Of a stretch of 64,000 bases of DNA, positions 2,761 to 30,790 are shown piece by piece. Numbering within the stretch: the stretch's first letter is position 1; each line of letters opens with the position of its first letter. The DNA lies in the NCBI RefSeq assembly GCF_055900595.2, contig NZ_CM148325.1; one strand, written 5' to 3'. Below the pieces are notes generated by a model. That model did not search any database, had not been told where the DNA came from, and was given only the letters and a program-made list of their open reading frames with translations. The position numbers were made by a program, and so were the translations under genes.

Positions 2761-3933
2761 ATGCTGAGCAGAGAGGACTTTTACATGATAAAGCAAATGC
2801 GCCAGCAGGGCGCGTACATTGTCGATATTGTGACTCAGATTGGTTGCTCTGAACGAACGGTCAGACGCTACCTCAAATACCCTGAACCGCCAGCCAGAAG
2901 GACCCGCCACAAAATGGTTAAGCTGAAACCGTTTATGGATTACATCGACATGCGCCTGGCAGAGAATGTCTGGAATAGCGCGGTTATCTTCGCGGAGATT
3001 AAGGCAATGGGCTATACGGGCGGACGTTCCATGCTGCGTTACTACATCCAGCCCAAACGTAAAATGCGTCCGTCAAAAAGAACAGTTCGCTTCGAAACTC
3101 AGCCAGGATACCAGCTCCAGCACGACTGGGGCGAAGTTGAGGTGGAAGTTGCCGGGCAACGGTGCAAAGTTAACTTTGCGGTTAATGCGCTGGGGTTCTC
3201 CCGCCGCTTTCATGTCTTCGCTGCCCCAAAACAGGATGCTGAGAATACCTACGAATCACTGGTTCGCGCCTTCCGCTACTTCGGTGGTTGTGTGAAAACG
3301 GTGCTGGTTGATAACCAGAAGGCTGCGGTGCTGAAGAATAACAACGGGAAAGTCGTGTTCAACTCCGGATTTCTGTTGCTGGCTGACCACTATAACTTCC
3401 TGCCACGGGCATGCCGTCCACGCAGGGCCAGAACAAAAGGTAAGGTTGAGCGGATGGTGAAATACCTCAAGGAGAACTTCTTCGTCCGGTACCGCAGGTT
3501 CGACAGCTTCACTCATGTCAATCAACAACTGGAGCAATGGATAGCCGATGTGGCTGACAAACGGGAGCTTCGTCAGTTCAAAGAAACGCCGGAACAGCGC
3601 TTCGCGCTGGAGCAGGAATATCTGCAGCCGTTACCGGATACGGACTTCGATACCAGTTACTTTGACATCCGCCATGTGTCCTGGGACAGCTATATCGAGG
3701 TTGGTGGTAATCGTTACAGCGTTCCCGAAGCGCTGTGTGGTCAGCCGGTATCGATACGAATATCGCTGGATGACGAGTTGCGGATCTACAGTAATGAGAA
3801 ACTGGTGGCCTCACATCGCCTCTGTTCGGCATCGTCTGGCTGGCAGACAGTGCCGGAGCATCACACCCCGCTCTGGCAGCAGGTCAGTCAGGTGGAACAT
3901 CGACTACTGAGTGCCTATGAGGAGCTGTTGTGA
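2761..3933 (+). CDS. istA: IS21 transposase IstA
   Basis: 390-aa ORF, close match to my recollection of IS21 IstA (MLSREDFYMIKQMRQQG...). Confidence 0.9.
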   Translation: MLSREDFYMIKQMRQQGAYIVDIVTQIGCSERTVRRYLKYPEPPARRTRHKMVKLKPFMDYIDMRLAENVWNSAVIFAEIKAMGYTGGRSMLRYYIQPKRKMRPSKRTVRFETQPGYQLQHDWGEVEVEVAGQRCKVNFAVNALGFSRRFHVFAAPKQDAENTYESLVRAFRYFGGCVKTVLVDNQKAAVLKNNNGKVVFNSGFLLLADHYNFLPRACRPRRARTKGKVERMVKYLKENFFVRYRRFDSFTHVNQQLEQWIADVADKRELRQFKETPEQRFALEQEYLQPLPDTDFDTSYFDIRHVSWDSYIEVGGNRYSVPEALCGQPVSIRISLDDELRIYSNEKLVASHRLCSASSGWQTVPEHHTPLWQQVSQVEHRLLSAYEELL

Positions 3934-13535: not shown

Positions 13536-14688
13536 AATAGCTGCGCGGAATAGTAGATCACTTTGAGGGAGCTCAGCCTGGATTGTGCGATCTGATCAAT
13601 CGCCAAATCAAAACAAATCACCAACCGGACTGAGCAATGCCGATCATAGCACCAATTTCCCGTGACGAACGACGCCTGATGCAGAAAGCCATCCATAAAA
13701 CACACGATAAAAATTATGCCCGCAGACTGACTGCCATGCTGATGCTGCACCGGGGCGACCGTGTCAGCGACGTTGCCAGAACGCTCTGCTGCGCCCGTTC
13801 CTCTGTTGGATGTTGGATTAACTGGTTCACGCAGTCGGGTGTTGAGGGACTGAAATCATTACCTGCCGGGCGAGCCCGTCTCTGGTCGTTTGAGCATATC
13901 TGCACACTGTTACGTGAGCTGGTAAAACATTCTCCCGGCGACTTTGGCTACCAGCGTTCACGCTGGAGTACAGAACTGCTGGCAATAAAAATCAATGAGA
14001 TAACCGATTGCCAGTTAAATGCCGGAACCGTTCGCCGCTGGTTGCCGTCTGCGGGGATTGTGTGGCGAAGGGCTGCGCCAACTCTGCGTATCCGTGACCC
14101 GCATAAAGATGAAAAGATGGCAGCAATCCATAAAGCACTGGACGAATGCAGCACAGAGCATCCGGTCTTTTATGAAGATGAAGTGGATATCCATCTTAAT
14201 CCCAAAATCGGTGCGGACTGGCAACTGCGCGGACAGCAAAAACGGGTGGTCACGCCGGGACAGAATGAAAAATATGATCTGGCCGGAGCGCTGCACAGCG
14301 GGACAGGTAAAGTCAGCTATGTGGGCGGCAACAGCAAAAGTTCGGCGCTGTTCATCAGCCTGCTGAAGCGGCTTAAAGCGACATACCTTCGGGTGAAAAC
14401 CATCACACTGATCGTGGACAACTACATTATCCACAAAAGCCGGGAAACACAGCGCTGGTTGAAGGAGAACCCGAAGTTCAGGGTCATTTATCAGCCGGTT
14501 TACTTGCCATGGGTGAATCATGTTGAACGGCTATGGCAGGCACTTCACGACACAATAACGCGTAATCATCAGTGCCGCTCAATGTGGCAACTGTTGAAAA
14601 AAATTCGCCATTTTATGGAAACCATCAGCCCGTTCCCCGGAGGCAAACATGGGCTGGCAAAAGTGTAGTGGTATTAGGCGCAGCTATT
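13536..14688 (+). mobile_element. IS630, complete
   Basis: exactly 1153 bp between terminal inverted repeats AATAGCTGCGC; flanked by TA inside a reconstituted CTAG target. Confidence 0.9.
13637..14668 (+). CDS. IS630 transposase
   Basis: 343-aa ORF matching my recollection of IS630 transposase (MPIIAPISRDERRLMQKAIHKTHD...). Confidence 0.92.
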   Translation: MPIIAPISRDERRLMQKAIHKTHDKNYARRLTAMLMLHRGDRVSDVARTLCCARSSVGCWINWFTQSGVEGLKSLPAGRARLWSFEHICTLLRELVKHSPGDFGYQRSRWSTELLAIKINEITDCQLNAGTVRRWLPSAGIVWRRAAPTLRIRDPHKDEKMAAIHKALDECSTEHPVFYEDEVDIHLNPKIGADWQLRGQQKRVVTPGQNEKYDLAGALHSGTGKVSYVGGNSKSSALFISLLKRLKATYLRVKTITLIVDNYIIHKSRETQRWLKENPKFRVIYQPVYLPWVNHVERLWQALHDTITRNHQCRSMWQLLKKIRHFMETISPFPGGKHGLAKV

Positions 14689-15824: not shown

Positions 15825-16109
15825 CTAGTGGTTCTTTGATGGTATATCAAAAATGTTTGTGTGAACTGTATAACAGCCCTCCAGTAGTGATGCTAGCCAT
15901 TTGAAAGATTTCTGCTGTTCTGAAGACCATCTGGAATTATTTGATTCAAAATGAATGAATGCCAGTATTTGTATCATCTGTTCCTTAGGAAGCGATGAAG
16001 CCAGATATGAAAATGCAACCGTGAGAGCATTCATGTCGTCTCGAAGCATTGACATGTACTCGAGTAATTCCTGCAGAGTAATTGTTCTATTGTCCATAAA
16101 ACTCCTCAT
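15825..16109 (-). CDS. hypothetical 94-aa protein, divergent from iha
   Basis: ORF only; no family recognised; may start at internal Met. Confidence 0.3.
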   Translation of the reverse strand: MRSFMDNRTITLQELLEYMSMLRDDMNALTVAFSYLASSLPKEQMIQILAFIHFESNNSRWSSEQQKSFKWLASLLEGCYTVHTNIFDIPSKNH

Positions 16110-16353
16110 TATTAATTATATTCACCTGTCTGATGTACGAAATATCCGATAGTGTATGATTAACATATCCAAGGACAAGAAACTGATAAAGATTGGATAA
16201 ATACCCATAGTGCAAAAATCCGATATGGATCGTCAACGATTGCTATCCGTTACTTTCCCCTAGAGAAAAGAACGTCCTCAACTGAAATTCGGGGTATAGT
16301 AGAACCTTATGTAATATTTTGTAATTTTTTGCTTTTTTATGTAAAAACCAAAA

Positions 16354-16372
16354 GCAAATCATTCTCATTATC
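16354..16372 (+). promoter_or_regulatory. putative Fur box upstream of iha
   Basis: GCAAATCATTCTCATTATC matches 14 of 19 positions of GATAATGATAATCATTATC, about 50 bp upstream of the iha start. Confidence 0.4.
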
Positions 16373-16421
16373 TCTTGCGTTTGTTTATCTTCTCTCTGAT
16401 TAATATAATCGGAGAGAAGAT

Positions 16422-18509
16422 ATGCGAGTAACCACTCTGGCTTCAGTAGCCATCCCTTGTCTCGGGTTTTCAGTCAGCAGTATGGCTGCGGAAGATGTGA
16501 TGGTAGTCACGGCGTCTGGCTATGAAAAAAAATTAACCAGTGCAGCTGCGAGTGTTTCAGTGATCAGCCAGGAGGATTTGCGATCCAGCCAGTATCATGA
16601 TCTGGGGGAGGCACTGAGATCCGTAGAGGGGGTGGATGTTGAAAGCGGTACGGGTAAAACAGGTGGGCTGGAAATCAGCATCCGCGGAATGCCTGCCAGT
16701 TATACGCTGATACTGATCGATGGTGTCCGTCAGGGCGGGAGCAGTGACGTAACCCCAAACGGTTATGCTGCCATGAATACGGGTTTTATGCCACCTCTGG
16801 CCGCCATCGAACGTATTGAGATTATCAGGGGCCCCATGTCCACTCTGTACGGCTCTGATGCCATGGGGGGCGTGGTGAATATCATCACCAAAAAGAATGC
16901 AGACAAATGGCGCTCTTCGGTTAATGCCGGGCTGAACCTGCAGGAAAGTAACAAATGGGGGAACAGCAGCCAGTTTAATTTCTGGAGCAGCGGTCCCCTT
17001 GTGGATGATTCACTCAGCCTTCAGGTACGTGGCAGCACACAGCAGCGTCAGGGCTCATCGGTCACATCACTGAGCGACACCTCAGCTACGCGTATCCCTT
17101 ATCCCACGGAATCACAGAATTATAATGCAGGTGGTCGTCTTGACTGGAAAGCGACGGACAAGGATGTACTCTGGATTGATATGGATATCGCCCGGCAGCG
17201 TTATGATAACCGAGATGGCCAGCTGGGCAGTCTGACGGGCGGTTATGATCGCACCCTGCGCTATGAGCGTAATAAAATTTCAGCAGGCTATGATCATACA
17301 TTCACCTTCGGAGCCTGGAAGTCATCCCTGAACTGGAATGAGACGGAAAATAAAGGCCGTCAGCTTGTACGTAGCGTACTGCAGCGTGATAAATGGGGGC
17401 TTGCCGGCCAGCCGAGGGAGCTTAAGGAGTCGAATCTTATCCTGAGCTCATTACTGTTTGCACCTCTGGGGGAATCACACAAGGTTACCGTCGGTGGTGA
17501 GTATCAGAACTCCTCCATGAAAGACGGGGTTGTTCTCGCCAGTACTGGTGAAACCTTCCGTCAGAAAAGCTGGTCGGCATTTGTTGAGGATGAGTGGTAT
17601 ATCACGGATGCATTTGCACTGACTGCGGGTAGCCGCTATGAACGCTATGAGGTGTTCGGAGGACACTTCAGTCCCCGGGCATATATGGTCTGGGATGTGA
17701 CTGATGCGTGGACGCTGAAAGGTGGGGTGACCACGGGATATAAGGCGCCCAGCATGGGGCAGTTACATAAGGGGATCAGCGGTGTGTCCGGTCAGGGGCG
17801 TACGAATCTTCTCGGTAACCCGGACCTGAAGCCGGAGGAGAGTGTCAGTTATGAAGCGGGCGTGTATTACGATAATCATGCCGGTCTGAACGCCAATATC
17901 ACGGGCTTTATGACAGAATTCTCCAACAAGATCGTATCTTATTCCATTGATGATAATACCCGCAGCTACACAAACAGCGGAAAGGCTAGGACTCAGGGCG
18001 TGGAATTTGCCGGCACACTGCCTCTGTTGTCAGAGGATGTGACTCTGTCTCTGAATTATACCTGGACGCAGAGTGAACAACGGGATGGGGATAATAAAGG
18101 TGCACCACTGAGTTACACCCCTGAGCATATGGTGAATGCGAAACTGAACTGGCAGATTACTGAAGAGGTGACATCATGGCTGGGTGCCCGTTACCGCGGG
18201 AAAACGCCACGTTTCACCCAGAATTATTCGTCACTCTCAGCTGTACAGAAGAAAGTGTATGATGAGAAAGGTGAATATCTGAAAGCCTGGACGGTACTGG
18301 ATGCGGGCATGTCGTGGAAAGTGACGGATGCACTGATGCTGAATGCAGCGGTGAATAATGTGCTTAACAAGGATTACAGTGACGTAAGTCTGTATCGTGC
18401 CGGCAGTGGTACGCTTTATGCGGGTGATTACTTCCAGACGGGGGCATCGACAACGGGTTATGTGATACCTGAGAGAAATTACTGGATGTCGCTGAACTAT
18501 CAGTTCTGA
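16422..18509 (+). CDS. iha: TonB-dependent outer-membrane siderophore receptor / adhesin Iha
   Basis: 695-aa ORF with signal peptide, plug domain, beta-barrel and C-terminal aromatic residue; matches remembered Iha N-terminus. Confidence 0.85.
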   Translation: MRVTTLASVAIPCLGFSVSSMAAEDVMVVTASGYEKKLTSAAASVSVISQEDLRSSQYHDLGEALRSVEGVDVESGTGKTGGLEISIRGMPASYTLILIDGVRQGGSSDVTPNGYAAMNTGFMPPLAAIERIEIIRGPMSTLYGSDAMGGVVNIITKKNADKWRSSVNAGLNLQESNKWGNSSQFNFWSSGPLVDDSLSLQVRGSTQQRQGSSVTSLSDTSATRIPYPTESQNYNAGGRLDWKATDKDVLWIDMDIARQRYDNRDGQLGSLTGGYDRTLRYERNKISAGYDHTFTFGAWKSSLNWNETENKGRQLVRSVLQRDKWGLAGQPRELKESNLILSSLLFAPLGESHKVTVGGEYQNSSMKDGVVLASTGETFRQKSWSAFVEDEWYITDAFALTAGSRYERYEVFGGHFSPRAYMVWDVTDAWTLKGGVTTGYKAPSMGQLHKGISGVSGQGRTNLLGNPDLKPEESVSYEAGVYYDNHAGLNANITGFMTEFSNKIVSYSIDDNTRSYTNSGKARTQGVEFAGTLPLLSEDVTLSLNYTWTQSEQRDGDNKGAPLSYTPEHMVNAKLNWQITEEVTSWLGARYRGKTPRFTQNYSSLSAVQKKVYDEKGEYLKAWTVLDAGMSWKVTDALMLNAAVNNVLNKDYSDVSLYRAGSGTLYAGDYFQTGASTTGYVIPERNYWMSLNYQF

Positions 18510-18550
18510 TAACAACAAACCCGATATAACGCATTATAATACGTAAAGAT

Positions 18551-18581
18551 GCTGCCTCTGTCACCTGAGGGCAGTGGCAGC
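18551..18581 (+). terminator. hairpin downstream of iha
   Basis: GCTGCCTCTGTCACCTGAGGGCAGTGGCAGC inverted repeat. Confidence 0.35.
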
Positions 18582-18995
18582 AACACACGATGCAGGTGTT
18601 TGATCACCAGTGACCCGCCGTTTACTCCTTTAGTATGGCATACTTCTGTTGTCACCTGTGACCAGGCGCGCGACTCTGTAAACATCCGGATGTATGCGTT
18701 CTTCTGACAGTTAATATTACCGGCAGGTAGTTGACGATGTGTGGGCTTGTGACCGCATCCGGGTAATAAAGAAATAATCCGCCAGCGGCTTTTATTCTTA
18801 TGGGCAGTAATTAAATACATCGCCATGTGGGTAAATATAAGTGACGGAATGAGAGTAACAAGTGATGCTGGAATTAAGATTTTGCTTTTTGCAGTGATAG
18901 CCAGAGCCTTTTACAGAAATGTGGTATGAGGTGCATTTTTTACGCTCACATTATTGTTTTATTATCGGCGTCAACCAGTGATCAGGAGGTGCAAC

Positions 18996-19247
18996 ATGCG
19001 TATATGTGTTTTTGGTTACAAAACATGTCCTTCAGTACACCGGATCATGCATCATGCGACAAATCTCCGGGATGAAACAGGGGCAGATGTCCTCTTTATT
19101 GATGCTGAGAAACATGGTATCAGTCTGAAGGTAATGTCTGAGCGTGCTGGATGTGCAGTTGAAAAATTCCCCTGTGTTTTTGTTGATGACGTCTATCTCG
19201 AACCACTGCCACCGGTGCCGGGACAACCTCATTATACTTATTGTTGA
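18996..19247 (+). CDS. small hypothetical protein, possibly thioredoxin/glutaredoxin-fold
   Basis: starts MRICVFGYKTCPSV; loose resemblance to NrdH-like layout. Confidence 0.25.
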   Translation: MRICVFGYKTCPSVHRIMHHATNLRDETGADVLFIDAEKHGISLKVMSERAGCAVEKFPCVFVDDVYLEPLPPVPGQPHYTYC

Positions 19248-19442
19248 AAATCACCACTTGGTATGAATCAGTTCCCCGGCTTTGTGAAAGGCCGGGTATA
19301 ATCACAGACTGTCTGTTATGCTTGGCAGATACACTTCCCCGGATCCCACCGTAATTTTTTAATCCCGTTTTTAATTTATTGCTGATAAATGAGCGCTTTC
19401 TTCGCACGCTGTCAGTCAGATAATATCTGACTGAGGTGTACG

Positions 19443-19838
19443 ATGTACCGGATTTTCTGTTCCCTGTTTTTCCTGCCGCTGGCAGCGTCTGCCGGCACAA
19501 CAATTTATACCGATTCTCAGCATCTTCCCGTTAATCCTCCTGATGGTGTCAGGGTGGTTCTGCTGGATGCGCCTGAGCAGCTTCAGAGCCGCTTTTGGGG
19601 CCTGTTGCCTGCTGATGCGGGTGAGGCTGAATCGGTGGTCAGGGTACGTATGAAGTCTCCCGAATGGCAGACGATGCAGGCGGAACTGGCCGGTCATTAC
19701 CGCGATGTGGCACATGCCTAGTCGCTGGGCGTGAAGAAATACCCTGCCGTGGTGTTTGATGACAGTGAGGTGGTTTACGGCACCATGGATGTGGTGATGG
19801 CCGGGAAAATCCGTGCTGAGGGAGGAGTGCAGCCATGA
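19443..19838 (+). pseudogene. secreted integrating-conjugative-element-type protein with in-frame amber stop at 19719-19721
   Basis: signal peptide; reading frame continues unchanged after TAG to 19838. Confidence 0.45.
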
Positions 19839-20812
19839 TGTCCCTGAAATGTCGTCTGCGTACCGGCGTGCTGTTACTGAGTGTGGCATCACTGCCCCTG
19901 GCGTCTGTATCACTGAACACCGCCAGCATTATCGCCAGTACTGCGGCACCGGACTATATCAGCTGGCGTGTCAGCGGGATTTGTTACTGGCTTTACTGCA
20001 GCGCGTCTGGCTGTACGGTCAGAATTTCCGTGAAGGTGACACATTTCATCCCGGAAGTGGTTATTTCCACCTATACGGCACCGGGTGGTAATCCCTGGAA
20101 AGAGATGTCGCTGGTCAGCCGGACCGCAGGTGGCCCGGAGAATGCCATCACTGACGGCCTGTCCGGGCTGAGTGCCGGCGGGGGAAATCCGGCGGATATG
20201 AAAATACAGGGGAAGCGCCGTTCAGCAATTCGTTTCAAATACGCAGATGCGCTGGGTCATCCGGCCACACAGCTTATCGGCGGGATGGTACCCGGATTCA
20301 GCTGTGATTCACCGGTGACACCGGCCATGGCCTATTTCCTCAGTACCCTGGACAGCATCGTCTAGCGAACGGGATTACCTGAATCCCTGTATCCAGAGGC
20401 ACAGGTTCCCGGCAAACGCGAGATTGGCAGCTAGGCCGATAAAAACATGTGGGGGAGCGTTTATCACCGGAGTGGTTTTGTGATGCAGAGCGATGATGAC
20501 CGGGCCGCGGCGGTGGGGGCTCAGCGGGTGGCCGACATTATCACGCGGATGGGGGAGTCGCATGTCTACAGGGAGGTTAAGGGCGTGAAACGTGACGGCT
20601 ACTGGCCCCCGGAGGCGGTGGAGGAAAACACCGGCACCCGCAATCACAAATGGCAGCGACTGACGCCGTCAGTGTCGCGTTCCTGTGCCGTTTTCCCGGA
20701 TGGTGAACACCAGGCGGCGGAGAACGGTAATGCAGCCTTTGCACTGTGGCAGCCTTACAGCTGCTTCGAAAAGCGCGGGCAGCGATTCCTTGGCAGTACG
20801 AATTTTTAAGGA
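19835..20812 (+). pseudogene. TraU-like conjugative transfer protein, disrupted
   Basis: signal peptide plus Cys-rich N-terminus; stop at 20365 then continuation in another frame to 20812. Confidence 0.35.
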
Positions 20813-20815
20813 ACC

Positions 20816-21550
20816 ATGATGATGAAGATGAAAACAGGTATGGTGGCACTGAGTGTGATGCTGTACTGCAGTATTCCGGCGATGGCTGATCTTCTTTCCC
20901 TGCCGAAACTGAATGACAGCACGTTCGGTTACGGGAAATCCGTGGATGGCGCCGTATCCGACAAACTGTTCTATACGCTGGGTGGCGGCTCGGTGATCTC
21001 ACAGTTGGCCACGCGCAGCAACATGCAGAAGCTGGGTATGGACCTGGGCTGGAGCAGCGATCTGATGTGCGGCAACTTTGACCTGAAGACCACGGTGGGT
21101 AATCATCTTAACGGATTGACCGACGGCTTTAAAAATCTGATGGGGGATGTGATTTAGGGGGCGACCGGCGCCGCTGCCAGTCTGCCGGCGATGGTGATAC
21201 AGCGTGCCAACCCCGGCCTGTACGACATGATCACCAACGGTGTGCTGCAGGCGAATGTGGCTTTCGACAAGGCGTAACTGAACTGCCAGAACATGGCAAA
21301 ACGGATGATGGACTTTTCTGATCGCAGCAAATGGACGCAGGCCAGCGATGCTGGAAGAGTACAAGAAGGTGGTGAACAGCGGTGACGGTGATGCGGTGAA
21401 AGGGGACGAGGCCGGACGTCAGGCCACCGGGAAGGAAGGTAAGAAATGGATTGGCGGGCAGCAGCGCGGCGGGGCAGGTCAGCCCGCCATCCGGCCGGTG
21501 CATGATCTGACAGCGGCTGGGTTTAACATGATGAACAGTCTGCCCGTGAC
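20816..21550 (+). pseudogene. secreted conjugation-module protein, frameshifted
   Basis: signal peptide MKTGMVALSVMLYCSIPAMA; ORF broken after 113 aa with continuation in other frames. Confidence 0.35.
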
Positions 21551-21559
21551 CAGTACGGG

Positions 21560-22243: not shown

Positions 22244-22252
22244 TGTTAAGTG
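22244..22252. repeat. 9-bp target-site duplication TGTTAAGTG, left copy
   Basis: identical 9-mer at 23582-23590 immediately after the IS10 inside end. Confidence 0.9.
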
Positions 22253-23581
22253 CTGATGAATCCCCTAATGATTTTTATCAAAATCATTAAGTTAAGGTAG
22301 ATACACATCTTGTCATATGATCAAATGGTTTCGCCAAAAATCAATAATCAGACAACAAAATGTGCGAACTCGATATTTTACACGACTCTCTTTACCAATT
22401 CTGCCCCGAATTACACTTAAAACGACTCAACAGCTTAACGTTGGCTTGCCACGCCTTACTTGACTGTAAAACTCTCACTCTTACCGAACTTGGCCGTAAC
22501 CTGCCAACCAAAGCGAGAACAAAACATAACATCAAACGAATCGACCGATTGTTAGGTAATCGTCACCTCCACAAAGAGCGACTCGCTGTATACCGTTGGC
22601 ATGCTAGCTTTATCTGTTCGGGCAATACGATGCCCATTGTACTTGTTGACTGGTCTGATATCCGTGAGCAAAAACGGCTTATGGTATTGCGAGCTTCAGT
22701 CGCACTACACGGTCGTTCTGTTACTCTTTATGAGAAAGCGTTCCCGCTTTCAGAGCAATGTTCAAAGAAAGCTCATGACCAATTTCTAGCCGACCTTGCG
22801 AGCATTCTACCGAGTAACACCACACCGCTCATTGTCAGTGATGCTGGCTTTAAAGTGCCATGGTATAAATCCGTTGAGAAGCTGGGTTGGTACTGGTTAA
22901 GTCGAGTAAGAGGAAAAGTACAATATGCAGACCTAGGAGCGGAAAACTGGAAACCTATCAGCAACTTACATGATATGTCATCTAGTCACTCAAAGACTTT
23001 AGGCTATAAGAGGCTGACTAAAAGCAATCCAATCTCATGCCAAATTCTATTGTATAAATCTCGCTCTAAAGGCCGAAAAAATCAGCGCTCGACACGGACT
23101 CATTGTCACCACCCGTCACCTAAAATCTACTCAGCGTCGGCAAAGGAGCCATGGATTCTAGCAACTAACTTACCTGTTGAAATTCGAACACCCAAACAAC
23201 TTGTTAATATCTATTCGAAGCGAATGCAGATTGAAGAAACCTTCCGAGACTTGAAAAGTCCTGCCTACGGACTAGGCCTACGCCATAGCCGAACGAGCAG
23301 CTCAGAGCGTTTTGATATCATGCTGCTAATCGCCCTGATGCTTCAACTAACATGTTGGCTTGCGGGCGTTCATGCTCAGAAACAAGGTTGGGACAAGCAC
23401 TTCCAGGCTAACACAGTCAGAAATCGAAACGTACTCTCAACAGTTCGCTTAGGCATGGAAGTTTTGCGGCATTCTGGCTACACAATAACAAGGGAAGACT
23501 CACTCGTGGCTGCAACCCTGCTTACTCAAAATCTATTCACACATGGTTACGTTTTGGGGAAATTATGAGGGGATCTCTCAG
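22253..23581 (+). mobile_element. IS10, complete
   Basis: 1329 bp; outside end CTGATGAATCCCCTAATGATTTT at 22253, inside end ...GGGGATCTCTCAG at 23581. Confidence 0.95.
22360..23568 (+). CDS. IS10 transposase
   Basis: 402-aa ORF matching remembered IS10 transposase (MCELDILHDSLYQFCPELHLKRLNS...). Confidence 0.95.
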   Translation: MCELDILHDSLYQFCPELHLKRLNSLTLACHALLDCKTLTLTELGRNLPTKARTKHNIKRIDRLLGNRHLHKERLAVYRWHASFICSGNTMPIVLVDWSDIREQKRLMVLRASVALHGRSVTLYEKAFPLSEQCSKKAHDQFLADLASILPSNTTPLIVSDAGFKVPWYKSVEKLGWYWLSRVRGKVQYADLGAENWKPISNLHDMSSSHSKTLGYKRLTKSNPISCQILLYKSRSKGRKNQRSTRTHCHHPSPKIYSASAKEPWILATNLPVEIRTPKQLVNIYSKRMQIEETFRDLKSPAYGLGLRHSRTSSSERFDIMLLIALMLQLTCWLAGVHAQKQGWDKHFQANTVRNRNVLSTVRLGMEVLRHSGYTITREDSLVAATLLTQNLFTHGYVLGKL

Positions 23582-23590
23582 TGTTAAGTG
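23582..23590. repeat. 9-bp target-site duplication TGTTAAGTG, right copy
   Basis: see left copy at 22244-22252. Confidence 0.9.
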
Positions 23591-26301: not shown

Positions 26302-28281
26302 ATGGGCAGACCGTTAAAAACTTTATTCAAACGTGAGCATAGTGAAGAAATCAGTAACCCGAGCGATAACCGCGCGTTTTCGCAGGTGGCGGAAGTCTAT
26401 TTGTCACGCCGCCGTCTGTTACAGGCAGGCACGGTCGCCGGTGCCGCGGCAGCGTTCCCATTTCTGCTGAAACAGGAAAACGCGCTGGCGAAAGTGGTCT
26501 CCAAAGCAAGCGGTAACCTCGGCAAAGCGACGACGCTCGGTTTCACCAGCCTGCCGGTTTCCACGGAAGATACCGTTATCGTGCCGGAAGGATACATCGC
26601 GAAGCCCTTCTACAAATGGGGCGACGCCACCGGGATTGCCGGAAATCTGCCGGTTTTTAAAACCGACGGTAGCAACACCACGGAAGAACAGGCGGCGCAG
26701 GCCGGGATGCACCACGACGGCATGGCGTGGTTTAGCCTGCCGCAGGGCGGGAACAGCTCCGATCACGGCCTGCTTGCCATAAACCATGAATACATCGATA
26801 ACGGTCTACTGTTTAAAGATGGCGATGCCAACTGGAGCGCCGATAAAGCTCTTAAAGGCCAGAACGCGATGGGCGTGTCGGTCATTGAAGTAAAAAAAGT
26901 GCCCCTGGGCTGGGAAGTGGTGCGCCCGTCATCGTTCGCACGCCGCATCACCGTTAACACGCCGATGAAAATCACCGGTCCGGCGCTGCATAACCCACTG
27001 ATGCAAACAGTTGACGATCCGAAAGGCGAAATCATTCTCGGCACCATGCAGAACTGTGCCAACGGATTTACGCCGTGGGGCACCTATCTGACGTGTGAAG
27101 AGAACTGGTCCGATATTTTCGTAAAAAAAGCAGAGATGAACCCGCTGGAAAAACGTTACGGTATCAGCGGGAGCGACGACTCTTACCGCTGGAACGAAGT
27201 GGATAAAAGGTTCAGCGTCGACGCCACGCCGAACGAGCCGAACCGCTTCGGCTGGGTGGTGGAAATCGATCCATACGATCCGCATTCAGTGCCGCGCAAG
27301 CACACCGCGCTTGGTCGCATCAAACACGAAGGCGCAGCGGTGACAATTGCCCCGGATAACCGCGTTGTGGTCTATATGGGCGATGACCAGAAATTCGAAT
27401 ACATATATAAATTTGTCTCGGAAGGAAAATTCAACCCGCAGGATCGCAAAGCCAACATGCACCTGCTGGAAAAAGGCACTCTGTACGTGGCGAAATTTAA
27501 CGACGACGGCAAAGGCGAGTGGCTACCGCTGGTGTTCGGACAAAATGGGCTCGACGCCAGTAAAGGGTTTGAAAACCAGGGCGACCTGTTGATTAAAACC
27601 CGTCTGGCGGCAGACGCCGTGGGGGCCACTAAAATGGACCGCCCGGAGTGGATTGCGGTCGATCCATATCACGCCGGCAGCGTTTACTGCACGCTCACCA
27701 ACAACAGCGATCGCGGTAAGGAAGGAAAAGCGCCAGTGGATGCGGCCAACCCGCGCGCCAAAAACGTTTACGGCCACATCATTCACTGGTTGGAGCATAA
27801 CGGTGACCCGACCGCGCTGCAGTTTGCCTGGGATATTCTTGTGATGGGCGGTCGCACCGATACAGACAAACTGGAAACCAAAGGCAGCATGAAGGGTGCG
27901 GAATTCGGCAGCGCCGATGGCCTGAGCTTTGATCACCGCGGCGTGCTATGGATCCAGACCGACGTGTCGTCATCAACCATAAATATTAAAGATTACAAAG
28001 GCATGGGCAACAACCAGATGGTGGCGACGATTCCCGGTACCAATGAGTTCCGCCGCTTCCTGACCGGCCCGCGCGGCTGCGAAATCACCGGCATCGCGTT
28101 CACTCCGGATAACCGGACGCTGTTTATTAACATCCAGCACCCTGGCGAGCCAAGCGAAGGGCTTAGCGATCCGCAGCATCCGACGGCAGTATCAAGCTGG
28201 CCTGACGGCGATAAGGCTGGTCGTCCGCGCTCCTCAACTGTCGTTATCGTAAAAGCCGACGGCGGCATAATCGGCACCTGA
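26302..28281 (+). CDS. PhoX-family (DUF839) Tat-secreted phosphatase-like protein
   Basis: 659-aa ORF with twin-arginine signal SRRRLLQAGTVAGAAAAFP and beta-propeller-like repeats. Confidence 0.55.
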   Translation: MGRPLKTLFKREHSEEISNPSDNRAFSQVAEVYLSRRRLLQAGTVAGAAAAFPFLLKQENALAKVVSKASGNLGKATTLGFTSLPVSTEDTVIVPEGYIAKPFYKWGDATGIAGNLPVFKTDGSNTTEEQAAQAGMHHDGMAWFSLPQGGNSSDHGLLAINHEYIDNGLLFKDGDANWSADKALKGQNAMGVSVIEVKKVPLGWEVVRPSSFARRITVNTPMKITGPALHNPLMQTVDDPKGEIILGTMQNCANGFTPWGTYLTCEENWSDIFVKKAEMNPLEKRYGISGSDDSYRWNEVDKRFSVDATPNEPNRFGWVVEIDPYDPHSVPRKHTALGRIKHEGAAVTIAPDNRVVVYMGDDQKFEYIYKFVSEGKFNPQDRKANMHLLEKGTLYVAKFNDDGKGEWLPLVFGQNGLDASKGFENQGDLLIKTRLAADAVGATKMDRPEWIAVDPYHAGSVYCTLTNNSDRGKEGKAPVDAANPRAKNVYGHIIHWLEHNGDPTALQFAWDILVMGGRTDTDKLETKGSMKGAEFGSADGLSFDHRGVLWIQTDVSSSTINIKDYKGMGNNQMVATIPGTNEFRRFLTGPRGCEITGIAFTPDNRTLFINIQHPGEPSEGLSDPQHPTAVSSWPDGDKAGRPRSSTVVIVKADGGIIGT

Positions 28282-28331: not shown

Positions 28332-28930
28332 ATGGTAAAGTCCTGTCAGTCCGCGCGCTGGCTTCCTTCAACGCTTTGTCGTAATTTTTGTCAGTCTGCT
28401 CGTAGTCTGGAATGCCCGGAATTCCTCAACGCTATGCCACTGTTCAGGCGCGGTGTGATGAGAGTGGCGTCGCTGGGTTATGCCTTTCCGGGCACGATTC
28501 TGGCGATTGGTTTTCTGACTCCCTAAATGACCGCTGGCTGGCGGAACTACTGGATTACAGGGGGTTACCTTTAATGTCTGTCGGTGTCCTGTTGGTGATT
28601 TGCTGTACGATGCGATTTCAGGCAATAGCCATCGGCGCACTTGATGTCCGGCTGGGACGTATACCAGAGTCACTGGAACAAGCCTCACGTCTGCTGGGAG
28701 AAAATGGTACAGGAACTTTTGTTCGGGTTCACTTTCCTGTGTTGCTCTGGTGAGCAGTGCCCTGCTGGTTTTCACTGATGCGATGAAAGAACTGCCAGTA
28801 ACACTTCTTTATGCTGAAGCAGCCCGTGGAACTTTTGAAGAAGGGGCCATCTCTGCTTTAATGATTGTTCTTGCAGGGACATTTCCGGTTATTTTGTTTG
28901 TTCCAGCTGAAAGACTGAAATCAGAGGATT
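28332..28930 (+). pseudogene. ABC transporter permease, C-terminal fragments with frameshifts
   Basis: hydrophobic permease segments spread over three frames. Confidence 0.5.
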
Positions 28931-28933
28931 GAT

Positions 28934-29600
28934 TATGTCTGAAGAAACAGCTTTATGTATTAATGATGTCCATGTTGTTTATCCCAATAGCCCATATCCT
29001 GTATTGCGGGGCGGGGGGTATGTCAGTCTGTAAAGGTGAACTGGCATGTCTGCTTGGTACATCAGGTTGTGGAAAAACAACAGTACTACGTGCTGTAGCT
29101 GGTTTTGAGCGCCTGAACAAGGGGAAATTTTTGTATCACAGCATTGTGTGGCCAGCGCAGATATGCATTTTCCGCCGGAGAAATGTCATGTCGGTATAGT
29201 CTTTCAGGAATATGCGCTCTTTCCCCACCTTACAGTTTCACAAAACGTGGCTTTGGTCTGAGAAGACTGCCGAGAGATGTACAGCGAACCAGAGTTACAG
29301 AACTGTTGAAAATGGTGGATTTATTCCACTATTCAGACAGCTATCCTCATGAACTTTCAGGAGGTCAGCAGCAACGTATTGCCCTTGCAAGGTCACTGGT
29401 TCCAAATCCAGATATCCTGTTGCTAGATGAACCATTTTCCAGCTTGGATAAAAAACAAGGGTAGGACTGAGCCGTGAAGTTCGTGATATTTTGCATGAGG
29501 CAGGGCAGACAGCACTTTTAGTCACTTACAGTGAACACGAAGCATATTTGATGGGGGCTCGTATTAGATATGTTAAAAACGGACAATATTGGGAAGGGTA
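28934..29600 (+). pseudogene. ABC transporter ATP-binding protein, multiple frameshifts
   Basis: Walker A LGTSGCGKTT, signature [15 protein letters not shown], Walker B LLLDEP found in different frames. Confidence 0.6.
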
Positions 29601-30080
29601 ACCTTGCCAGCAGACTGTCAAGATGTATTAAACAGGTCGATTAGCTGTAGGCGGGATAGCTCGCGGGATAAATCATCTGAGAATGTGCCATTTTCCGGGC
29701 TGTTATGGGGGACAGGCATTGCTGGTTGTTGGTTCGTTGATGGAGGGAAAGCTGCAGCACAGATAATGGGGCTTTAGGAAAAGGAAAGACATAATAACCA
29801 CGACAAAGTGACTATCAAAGTGGGCCAAGGACATTTGAATGTTTGAGATAATAAATATTGTAATGAAGCTGAGGCTATTGCTACCACCACACACTACAGA
29901 ACCTGCACCATTGGATGCCAAGAACAACTGTCCTAATACATAGAAATGCTCAGATAAAAGTGTTTATGTCTCATCCGGCATGAAAACGATGAGCACATTA
30001 TCTACAATCCACAGGCCCTCCTATTTTCCCGCTTATACATTCCCCATCTTCCATTTTTCCTCACCCGCGCCGGCACCACA

Positions 30081-30109
30081 CTGTCATCTTTCTGAGGTTT
30101 TACTGTCTT
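30081..30109 (+). promoter_or_regulatory. pho-box-like repeats of the ugpB promoter
   Basis: CTGTCAT at 30081 and CTGTCTT at 30103, about 22 bp apart, upstream of the ugpB remnant. Confidence 0.4.
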
Positions 30110-30218
30110 ACACATGTAATAAAAAGTTATTTTTCTGCAATTCGGGCATGATATGTAATCCCGCGAGCATAAAACGAGTGAATTTGCACATCAGGTACAA
30201 CAAGCAAGAGAGATAAAC

Positions 30219-30790
30219 GATGAAACCGTTACATTATACAGCTTCATCACTGGTGCTCGGACTGGCGTTAATGGGCAATGCACAGGCAGTGACGACCATT
30301 CCGTTTTGGAACTCTATGGAAGGGGAAATGGGCAAAGAGGTGGATACAACTGGAAAACTTTAGCGCCAGGAACGGTCTGCCGTTTGCCAGCAAAAACAAC
30401 GGTTTTGACGCCACGGACGCGGTGCTGGAGTTCAACAAGCCGGAGCAGGTGAAACACATCGTCATGCTCGAGGAGATGAACAAGAAGGGCGACTTCATCT
30501 ACGTCGGGCGTAAGGATGAATCCACCGAGAAGTTCTATAGAGGTGATTGCGCGATGACCACCGCCTCTTCCGGTTCTCTTGCCAACATTCGCGAGTACGC
30601 CAAATTCAACTACGGCGTAGGCATGATGCCTTACGACGCTGACGCGAAAGATGCACCACAAAACGCCATTATCGGCGGAGCCAGCCTGTGGGTGATGCAG
30701 GGCAAAGATAAAGAAACGTATACCGGCGCAGGCGAAAAGCTGGCGGTAGGGGAATCATCGGATCTTTCTGCTCATCCGGCGTTATCTCCA
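30219..30790 (+). pseudogene. ugpB: ugpB remnant: N-terminus, large internal deletion, 3' truncation
   Basis: [27 protein letters not shown] then stop; resumes [12 protein letters not shown]...[22 protein letters not shown]; diverges after about 30745. Confidence 0.7.

Follow-up and report, generated by a model that had tools for sequence, protein, structure and literature searches.

A divergent, functional-looking iha gene with a predicted Fur operator, probably kept as cargo of a decayed conjugative element

Introduction

Why does one gene stay whole while the conjugative element next to it falls apart, and does a whole gene also mean an expressed one? The question is raised by a stretch of 64,000 nucleotides from contig NZ_CM148325.1 (assembly GCF_055900595.2), here called the window, in which an uninterrupted iha gene lies beside broken transfer genes. 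iha encodes a Fur-repressed, TonB-dependent receptor for catecholate siderophores that also confers adherence. The gene is in wide use as a virulence marker of Shiga toxin-producing strains of Escherichia coli (STEC) and of extraintestinal pathogenic E. coli. An earlier note on this DNA had described the locus as an intact iha with a Fur-box-like operator, set in a decayed conjugation module.

We consider it highly probable that the locus holds a functional-looking, divergent iha with a Fur-box promoter, on a ~2.3-kb cargo module of an integrative conjugative element (ICE), and that this module was kept while the element decayed. The module would be cargo in a fixed slot of ICEs of the PFGI-1/pKLC102 type, the slot running from the conjugative ATPase and a small gene to TIGR03757/TIGR03756. 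In this island, the transfer genes upstream of iha would have been replaced by insertion sequence (IS) debris, and the downstream ones would have gathered stop codons, with the receptor gene under purifying selection. As in the rest of the family, Fe2+-Fur would bind the box at −68 to −50 when iron is present and block transcription. Without iron, iha would be transcribed and the protein exported, its N-terminal TonB box coupling the receptor to TonB-ExbBD so that ferric catecholates are taken up. A 17-bp hairpin specific to this lineage covers the Shine-Dalgarno sequence (SD) and the AUG and is predicted to cut translation sharply compared with the classical alleles. The sequence analysis shows the integrity of the gene, its family, the position and conservation of the box, the ICE origin, the signature of selection and the thermodynamics of the hairpin; for the window allele itself we infer Fur binding, ligand, adhesion and actual expression from its relatives.

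Results and discussion

The iha gene and its protein

16422..18509, + strand: iha, divergent subtype; translated open reading frame (ORF) of 695 codons, without internal stop or frameshift

The ORF is uninterrupted over 695 codons plus the stop, in agreement with the intact gene of the earlier note. Its product has a signal peptide at about residues 1–23, a TonB box (DVMVVTA) at residues 25–31 and a C-terminal Phe (…NYQF). Pfam recognized a Plug domain at residues 39–151 and a TonB_dep_Rec_b-barrel domain at 221–647, and an AlphaFold2 (AF2) model predicted a barrel of 22 strands with short periplasmic turns at about residues 164–695. Against NF010012, the NCBIfam equivalog for Iha, the protein scored 1538.7 bits (cut-off 924), with residues 1–695 aligned to the 696-position profile. 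The protein is 90% identical in amino acids to Iha of O157:H7 over the full length, and the allele is 14% diverged in DNA, which answers the comparison with O157:H7 proposed in the earlier note.

The protein also shows 100% identity to WP_001266790.1, which RefSeq names Iha, and falls in the same 90%-identity cluster as other proteins of this name. The exact protein is found on at least 1000 public contigs under the Iha name, from several backgrounds, and the same DNA in strains SFE8 and SMS-3-5 is annotated as “bifunctional siderophore receptor/adhesin Iha”. Because of the equivalog score, the annotation of identical DNA and the name of the exact protein, the identification as Iha is right; clustering with characterised Iha and the build of a TonB-dependent receptor agree with this membership. 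Among 5426 complete E. coli genomes, the window allele was found at ≥99% identity in 59, mostly poultry-derived.

Decay of the neighbouring transfer genes

19443..19838, + strand: pseudogene of a TIGR03757-family ICE protein; one nonsense codon, compared codon by codon with the intact gene of VTB96815v, a chicken isolate
19835..20809, + strand: pseudogene of a TIGR03756-family ICE protein; two nonsense codons
20819..21558, + strand: truncated pseudogene of the next ICE protein; two nonsense codons and a +1 frameshift at 21344
15827..16099, − strand: small intact hypothetical ORF of 90 aa (WP_000370415.1), immediately upstream; no family match
13637..14668: intact IS630 transposase, upstream

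Downstream of iha, positions 19363–21558 are 95% identical to, and collinear with, three conjugative-element genes of VTB96815v, and the ICE homology stops at 21558. The relics hold five nonsense codons and one frameshift in total, and PGAP, the NCBI annotation pipeline, calls the downstream ICE genes pseudogenes in identical DNA of SFE8. Elsewhere in the window we detected no homology to the 42-kb ICE stretch of VTB96815v, and no ATPase, coupling protein or pilus genes were found in this stretch. With three broken transfer genes remaining, the element does not qualify as an ICE of the PFGI-1/pKLC102/ICEclc type; judged from its sequence, 19443–21558 is a relic of a PFGI-1/pKLC102-type conjugative element and not a transfer-capable member. 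The decayed conjugation module of the earlier note can in this way be traced, as three disrupted transfer genes, to intact ICEs.

Upstream of 16308 the ICE homology is gone, and IS fragments are found instead. The claim that pseudogenes lie on both sides of iha stands for the downstream side. Upstream, where most of the neighbours are IS pseudogenes, it is only roughly right, because the ORF at 15827–16099 and the IS630 transposase are intact.

Selection on iha

The ratio of nonsynonymous to synonymous rates (dN/dS) for iha was 0.08 against the classical alleles and 0.14 against the ICE-borne allele of VTB96815v. The adjoining relics reached 0.46, a ratio that leaves out their five nonsense codons, and the tables of nonsynonymous and synonymous changes (N:S) of iha and relics differed (Fisher p = 1e-4). 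When changes were polarised with the classical alleles as outgroup, the window branch had an N:S of 18:19, against a neutral expectation of 3.3:1 (p = 1.8e-4). At the density of disruptions in the relics (six in 2.2 kb), the Poisson probability of finding none in the 2.09 kb of iha is 0.003. Together, these values support, for the history of the ORF, the earlier suggestion that iha was retained by selection.

The replacements are unevenly spread along the protein. Compared with O157, the predicted extracellular loops (strands from AF2) carried replacements at 10 of 189 residues (5%) and the rest of the protein at 53 of 483 (11%; p = 0.03); compared with the allele of plasmid pO113, the loops were likewise depleted (p = 0.003). 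The loops were placed at residues 175–181, 210–230, 263–274, 315–333, 369–378, 442–471, 554–568, 593–622 and 646–685. We had expected diversifying change in the surface loops, in the manner of phage and colicin receptors, and this was not borne out, the loops being the most conserved part. Immune or phage pressure produces the reverse of such conservation, which would fit a surface conserved for binding a ligand or the host. The strong purifying selection and the conserved predicted loops are the sole, indirect evidence on the presumed catecholate transport and adherence.

Several points weigh against the preferred reading as a whole. The synonymous divergence (dS) of iha from the ICE allele is 0.165, compared with 0.071 for the flanking ICE backbone, and the identity to the ICE allele ranges from 88% to 99% along the gene. 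This excess and this variation argue for a partly separate recombination history of iha, which weakens the assumption of the Poisson test that gene and relics share the same time span. The copies in the 59 complete genomes are nearly identical, too alike to resolve selection after the decay of the island. In the AF2 model the barrel reached a pLDDT of 70–90 and the plug was poorly modelled. The catecholate ligand, adhesion and Fur binding of the window allele are extrapolated from alleles that differ by 10% in protein. A consensus scan upstream of iha gave no sigma-70 promoter on the + strand. Finally, the ribosome-binding site (RBS) of the window iha is costlier to open than that of any of 78 control genes, and the gene may be down-tuned or silent despite its intact ORF; this last point is taken up with the leader hairpin below.

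A mobile iha module in a fixed ICE slot

16308..18582, + strand: mobile iha module of ~2.3 kb, with promoter, Fur box, leader, ORF and 3′ hairpin
18550..18582, + strand: 3′ stem-loop, 41 nt past the iha stop, without a U-tract
18583..19362: spacer of 780 bp that separates the iha module from the ICE backbone; restricted to the 59 genomes carrying this island

Homology to the ICE allele spans 16308–18582, and homology to the alleles of O157, EC958 and pO113 spans 16335–18519 only. This module is the sole stretch in common with iha of other contexts. Since homology is confined within these borders, promoter, Fur box, leader, ORF and stem-loop move as a unit of ~2.3 kb. The stem-loop after the iha stop is kept in all alleles, its arms differing in sequence yet staying complementary. 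It folds strongly in O157 (z = −5.2) and less so in the window allele (z = −1.9). A consensus terminator scan gave no intrinsic terminator at iha; the stem-loop is possibly a terminator or a 3′-end stabiliser. In the spacer, the ORF at 18954–19247 gave a weak, sub-threshold glutaredoxin-like match and is a remnant; six other genomes hold a thioredoxin-domain gene with which it shares 70% DNA similarity.

In VTB96815v, an apparently intact ICE carries the iha allele with 95% amino acid identity, together with the full PFGI-1-class transfer and pilus genes. There, iha is flanked by the conjugative ATPase with a small gene on one side and by TIGR03757 on the other, an arrangement found in 24 complete genomes (VTB96815v and 23 others). 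A second ICE, with a backbone ~80–83% identical in nucleotides, has a classical-type iha (97% nucleotide identity to O157) in the same slot in five genomes. The first ICE also occurs with an empty iha slot, in at least 12 genomes. Intact, empty and decayed states can all be compared, and the locus neatly illustrates a cargo gene that has outlasted the conjugative element carrying it.

The module in VTB96815v is bracketed by a 77-nt direct repeat (copies 91% identical; 17792–17868 and 20199–20275 of L005), which duplicates the 3′ end of the gene upstream of the module. A 98%-identical ICE without iha has a single 77-nt copy (L009, ~3519–3610), which fits either of two events: the module was inserted and its target duplicated, or it was lost precisely when the repeats recombined. 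No such repeats flank iha in L010, a more divergent ICE with the gene in this slot.

The link between iha and ICEs is not new, since ICEEc8 has been published with iha: it carries the gene at pheV in STEC O117:H7 and is without it in O91:H14 (PMC6455142). Compared by description, ICEEc8 resembles the intact ICEs described above in its TIGR037xx-family transfer genes and type IV pilus genes, and its presence with or without iha, depending on the host, matches the occupied and empty slots of these ICEs (PMC6455142). The window element differs from ICEEc8 in being a relic, with three broken transfer genes beside iha. ICEEc2 is, like ICEEc8, reportedly an ICE of E. coli in the pKLC102/PAGI-2 family.

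A leader hairpin over the ribosome-binding site

16386..16422, + strand: leader hairpin; inverted repeat with a 17-bp stem (one G-U pair) and a 3-nt loop

The clamped RBS is the only surprising element of the locus. The arms of the hairpin lie at 16386–16402 and 16406–16422. The anti-SD arm UAUCUUCUCUCUGAUUA pairs with UAAUCGGAGAGAAGAUA, which includes the SD GGAG and the A of the AUG; sequestered are the SD run GGAGAGAAG and the first base of the AUG. The minimum free energy is −27.2 kcal/mol (z = −7.9), and none of 200 shuffles was as good; the same leader folds with −20.8 kcal/mol in the ICE allele and about −16 kcal/mol in the classical alleles.

The cost of opening the RBS was compared with that of 78 control genes, taken from the K-12 ent/fep region, core genes and ICE genes (median 8.1, maximum 19.9 kcal/mol). 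Freeing positions −15 to +13 of the window iha costs 25.7 kcal/mol, above all controls. The ICE allele, with 19.6 kcal/mol, falls in the top 1.3% of the controls. For classical iha the cost is 10.5–11.6 kcal/mol, and 22–28% of the control genes are as structured.

Two explanations for the hairpin were tried and rejected. An RNA thermometer of the FourU or ROSE kind is contradicted by folds at 25, 37 and 42 °C, which show no melting: across 25–42 °C the probability of an unpaired SD was ≤0.001 and the opening cost ≥23.5 kcal/mol. Rfam gave no match, only chance sub-threshold matches to the hairpin at permissive E-values. An old, conserved leader element was discarded because the classical alleles and the orthologues from other genera have ordinary RBS structure.

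Where the ICE allele has TCGC, the 5′ arm has CTCT (16392–16395), a tight group of changes that all go towards complementarity and close an internal loop. We hypothesise that the perfect palindrome may stem from a template switch at a quasi-palindrome; the path is less clean when the metagenomic allele P0004 is used for comparison.

The hairpin is present in the mRNA only if transcription starts upstream of 16386; an overlap of Fur box and promoter would make such a start plausible. With it, the fold model predicts far weaker translation than that of classical iha. As the hairpin locks both SD and AUG, an intact ORF need not mean that protein is made, and the locus cautions against reading an intact ORF with an operator as an expressed virulence factor. 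The hairpin bears on present expression and leaves the evidence for long-term constraint standing.

The gene could accordingly have an intact ORF and still be effectively silent or heading to decay, the perfecting of the leader palindrome having locked the RBS too recently for lesions to appear. We regard this as unlikely, yet with enough behind it to be taken seriously. The fold energy and z-score, an opening cost far beyond the classical alleles and the control maximum, and the near absence of temperature sensitivity are what such a lock would produce, and the hairpin is present in all examined copies of the allele. Because these copies are only 0–1 substitutions apart, they have no resolving power for the time after the hairpin change. 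The N:S of the window branch (18:19) is nominally above that of the ICE branch (11:26), with p = 0.15. On the other side, the window branch in its entirety departs strongly from neutrality (p = 1.8e-4), the ORF has zero lesions compared with six in the adjoining 2.2 kb, and the exact protein persists on the contigs, at least 1000, mentioned above. Formation of the hairpin also hinges on the position of the transcription start, and small RNAs (sRNAs) or standby ribosomes can open structured leaders.

That last point leads to readings in which the hairpin is of use. It is improbable, though conceivable, that the leader of a poultry-associated island lineage evolved, possibly by template switch, into a near-perfect 17-bp clamp of the RBS that acts as a factor-opened switch on top of Fur control. 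Somewhat more doubtful still is the general view of the hairpin as a regulatory device, with translation dependent on an activator such as an iron-responsive sRNA, in an anti-antisense manner as for RyhB on shiA and cirA. In favour of this view, PMC5286369 cites the activation of cirA by RyhB. Every iha allele has some SD/AUG pairing, as do the orthologues of Citrobacter and Scandinavium, and the ICE allele, too, is among the most structured 1.3% relative to the controls. However, the classical alleles lie in the ordinary range, so that no strong element is conserved; covariation is minimal (one compensatory pair in six close sequences), and Rfam holds no match. If this view were true, a post-transcriptional layer would be added to Fur control.

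The predicted Fur box upstream of iha

16354..16372: Fur-box-like operator, spanning −68 to −50 relative to the ATG; score 14/19 (+ strand) and 15/19 (− strand)

Returning to the preferred reading, a retained iha under a Fur operator, we scored candidate sites against the 19 positions of the Fur consensus GATAATGATAATCATTATC. The + strand 19-mer GCAAATCATTCTCATTATC matches at 14 of 19 positions and ends 49 bp before the iha ATG, reproducing the 14/19 box about 50 bp upstream given in the earlier note. Read on the − strand (GATAATGAGAATGATTTGC), the same site scores 15/19. It is the only site of at least 15/19 in the window, where one of 319 tiles of 200 bp reaches 15. Proven Fur sites of K-12, scored in this way, reach 13 (fepA-fes), 16 (fepD-entS) and 15 (fepB-entC), a range that includes the window box.

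When the promoters of five iha contexts are aligned, the box falls in the most conserved block. At the orthologous position, the 19-mer of the ICE allele scores 14, that of O157 and EC958 13 and that of pO113 12, and the Iha orthologues of C. freundii, Scandinavium and S. odorifera, as well as a 76%-identical E. coli homologue, have boxes of 15–17/19 at −62 to −79. In CFT073, a Fur ChIP-seq summit lies at 3,450,905, 39 bp upstream of the iha start at 3,450,866 on the minus strand (PMC7157518 Table S5A), and iha is up ~181-fold in the fur mutant (PMC7157518 supplement). The window box is orthologous to the site under this peak. PMC6313751 likewise cites Fur repression of iha, attributed to Rashid 2006. 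By position, score, conservation and orthology, the predicted operator is well supported at the sequence level. Hexamers for −10 and −35 fitted by hand around the box gave nothing convincing, for which reason we claim no iha promoter.

It is very improbable that the match is an accident of AT-rich intergenic DNA and that the gene is outside Fur control. When the AT-rich 300 bp upstream were simulated with a first-order Markov model, 4.6% of the sequences scored at least 14 by chance, and other 14/19 matches without an iron link exist in the window. A score of at least 15, as reached on the other strand at this single best site of the window, has a chance probability of 0.8%; moreover, the position is kept across all iha alleles and genera and coincides with the in vivo Fur peak of CFT073.

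One of the other 14/19 matches is a second Fur-like palindrome at 37705–37723, scoring 14/19 on both strands. It lies within the coding sequence of the island integrase, has no iron link and was dismissed as probably due to chance.

A divergent iha lineage

The window iha is 85–86% identical in nucleotides to the alleles of O157:H7, EC958/ST131 and a pO113-type plasmid, and 86% to the CFT073 type; in protein, it is 90% identical to the O157, CFT073-type and pO113 alleles. Its synonymous divergence is ~0.6 from the classical alleles and 0.78 from the pO113 type, and no clear mosaic with classical alleles was found along the gene. In a neighbour-joining tree, the window clade consists of the window allele, the ICE-borne allele (95% amino acid identity) and P0004 (92%). 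The window Iha is sister to the clade of O157, EC958 and pO113, well inside the homologues from Citrobacter, Serratia and Shimwellia. About 1536 of the 5426 complete E. coli genomes carry iha at only 80–90% identity to the window allele.

Iha of O157:H7 (OI-43/48, TAI) and of CFT073 and EC958 (GI-pheV) resembles that of the window in length (within one residue), domain order, TonB box and C-terminus, with 90% amino acid identity. The O157 and uropathogenic E. coli (UPEC) genes also have in common with the window gene the promoter block, the position of the Fur box, the outline of the leader, the 3′ hairpin and surrounding IS debris. They differ by 14% in DNA and a dS of ~0.6, and their flanks have nothing in common with the window beyond −88 and +10. 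The Fur box of the window is nearer to consensus (15 compared with 13 of 19), and its RBS hairpin is 10–14 kcal/mol more stable. Unlike the O157 iha islands, the window is without ter genes and shows no homology to the sequence behind iha in OI-43/48, the location given for the sRNA Esr41 (PMC5286369). The comparison of island context proposed in the earlier note gives, for TAI/OI-43, a shared module with unlike flanks.

Three iha subtypes are distinguished in the literature, EDL933, LAA/LPA and pO113 (PMC6920203), which are 6–9% apart in DNA. Like the window allele, they are sequence lineages of one gene on separate mobile elements (PMC6920203). The window iha is 14–15% away in DNA from the EDL933 and pO113 types, the two that were compared. 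In the literature searched, the divergent lineage has not been singled out; the gene and its regulation are already known, and the picture of Iha and of Fur action is unchanged by our findings. Published iha primers have 1–5 mismatches to the window allele, and one STEC survey set a threshold of 90% identity for virulence genes detected by BLASTn (PMC6455142). Given these mismatches, the DNA divergence and an identity below 90%, surveys may under-count the lineage, especially in poultry-associated and related human isolates.

Among the NCBIfam receptor families scored on the window protein, only the Iha model passed its own cut-off, the runner-up being CfrA with 484 bits, under the cut-off of CfrA itself. 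The closest solved structure is that of CirA, the colicin I receptor (2HDF/2HDI), which likewise has a plug, a 22-strand barrel and an ETMVVTA-type TonB box; CirA is a catecholate receptor under Fur control, as predicted for the window Iha, and residues 25–32 (DVMVVTAS) align to the TonB box of 2HDF. CirA differs in being a distant relative (E = 7e-79, partial alignment), and its NCBIfam model gave 331 bits, below the cut-off. Another TonB-dependent receptor, of the CirA, IreA or CfrA type, mislabelled as Iha is scarcely credible and was refuted: it can point to a DNA identity to reference iha of 86%, under the 90% threshold of one STEC survey (PMC6455142), but the Iha equivalog score is three times that of any other family and the sole one above its cut-off, the protein is 90% identical to Iha over its full length and sister to the classical clade, and the promoter, leader and 3′ hairpin module is shared with classical iha.

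The island and its possible movement

The island runs from before the window start to a tyrosine integrase at ~37631–38818 (− strand), beside ynjA. The window contains no tRNA gene. The island is also present in SMS-3-5, at tRNA-Phe (pheV), where its integrase (L004, 37990–39426) is only 85% identical. The island DNA at 1–38800 is 99.9–100% identical to SFE8, GF4 and SMS-3-5. For the core genes at 39000–64000 (from ynjA past katE), identity to the island-bearing genomes is only ~96%, and no complete E. coli genome matches the junction of island and core above 97%. These values suggest that the island was recently transferred between distant backgrounds, or that its host is of an unusual Escherichia lineage.

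The exact IS pattern or core flank of the window was found in none of the complete genomes compared. An IS4-family element with an intact transposase of 402 aa lies at 22252–23582, a site at which no complete E. coli genome compared has it. Other strains have their own IS insertions nearby, IS3 at 19091–19096 in SFE8 and IS66 at ~19382 in SMS-3-5.

The island also carries, at 28378–30742, a decayed iron importer of the ATP-binding cassette type, in which permease, ATPase and solute-binding protein are all pseudogenes (PGAP on identical SFE8 DNA). It adjoins an intact PhoX-family gene at ~26302–28281. With this importer on the island, iha is not its sole iron-related cargo, but it is the one left intact.

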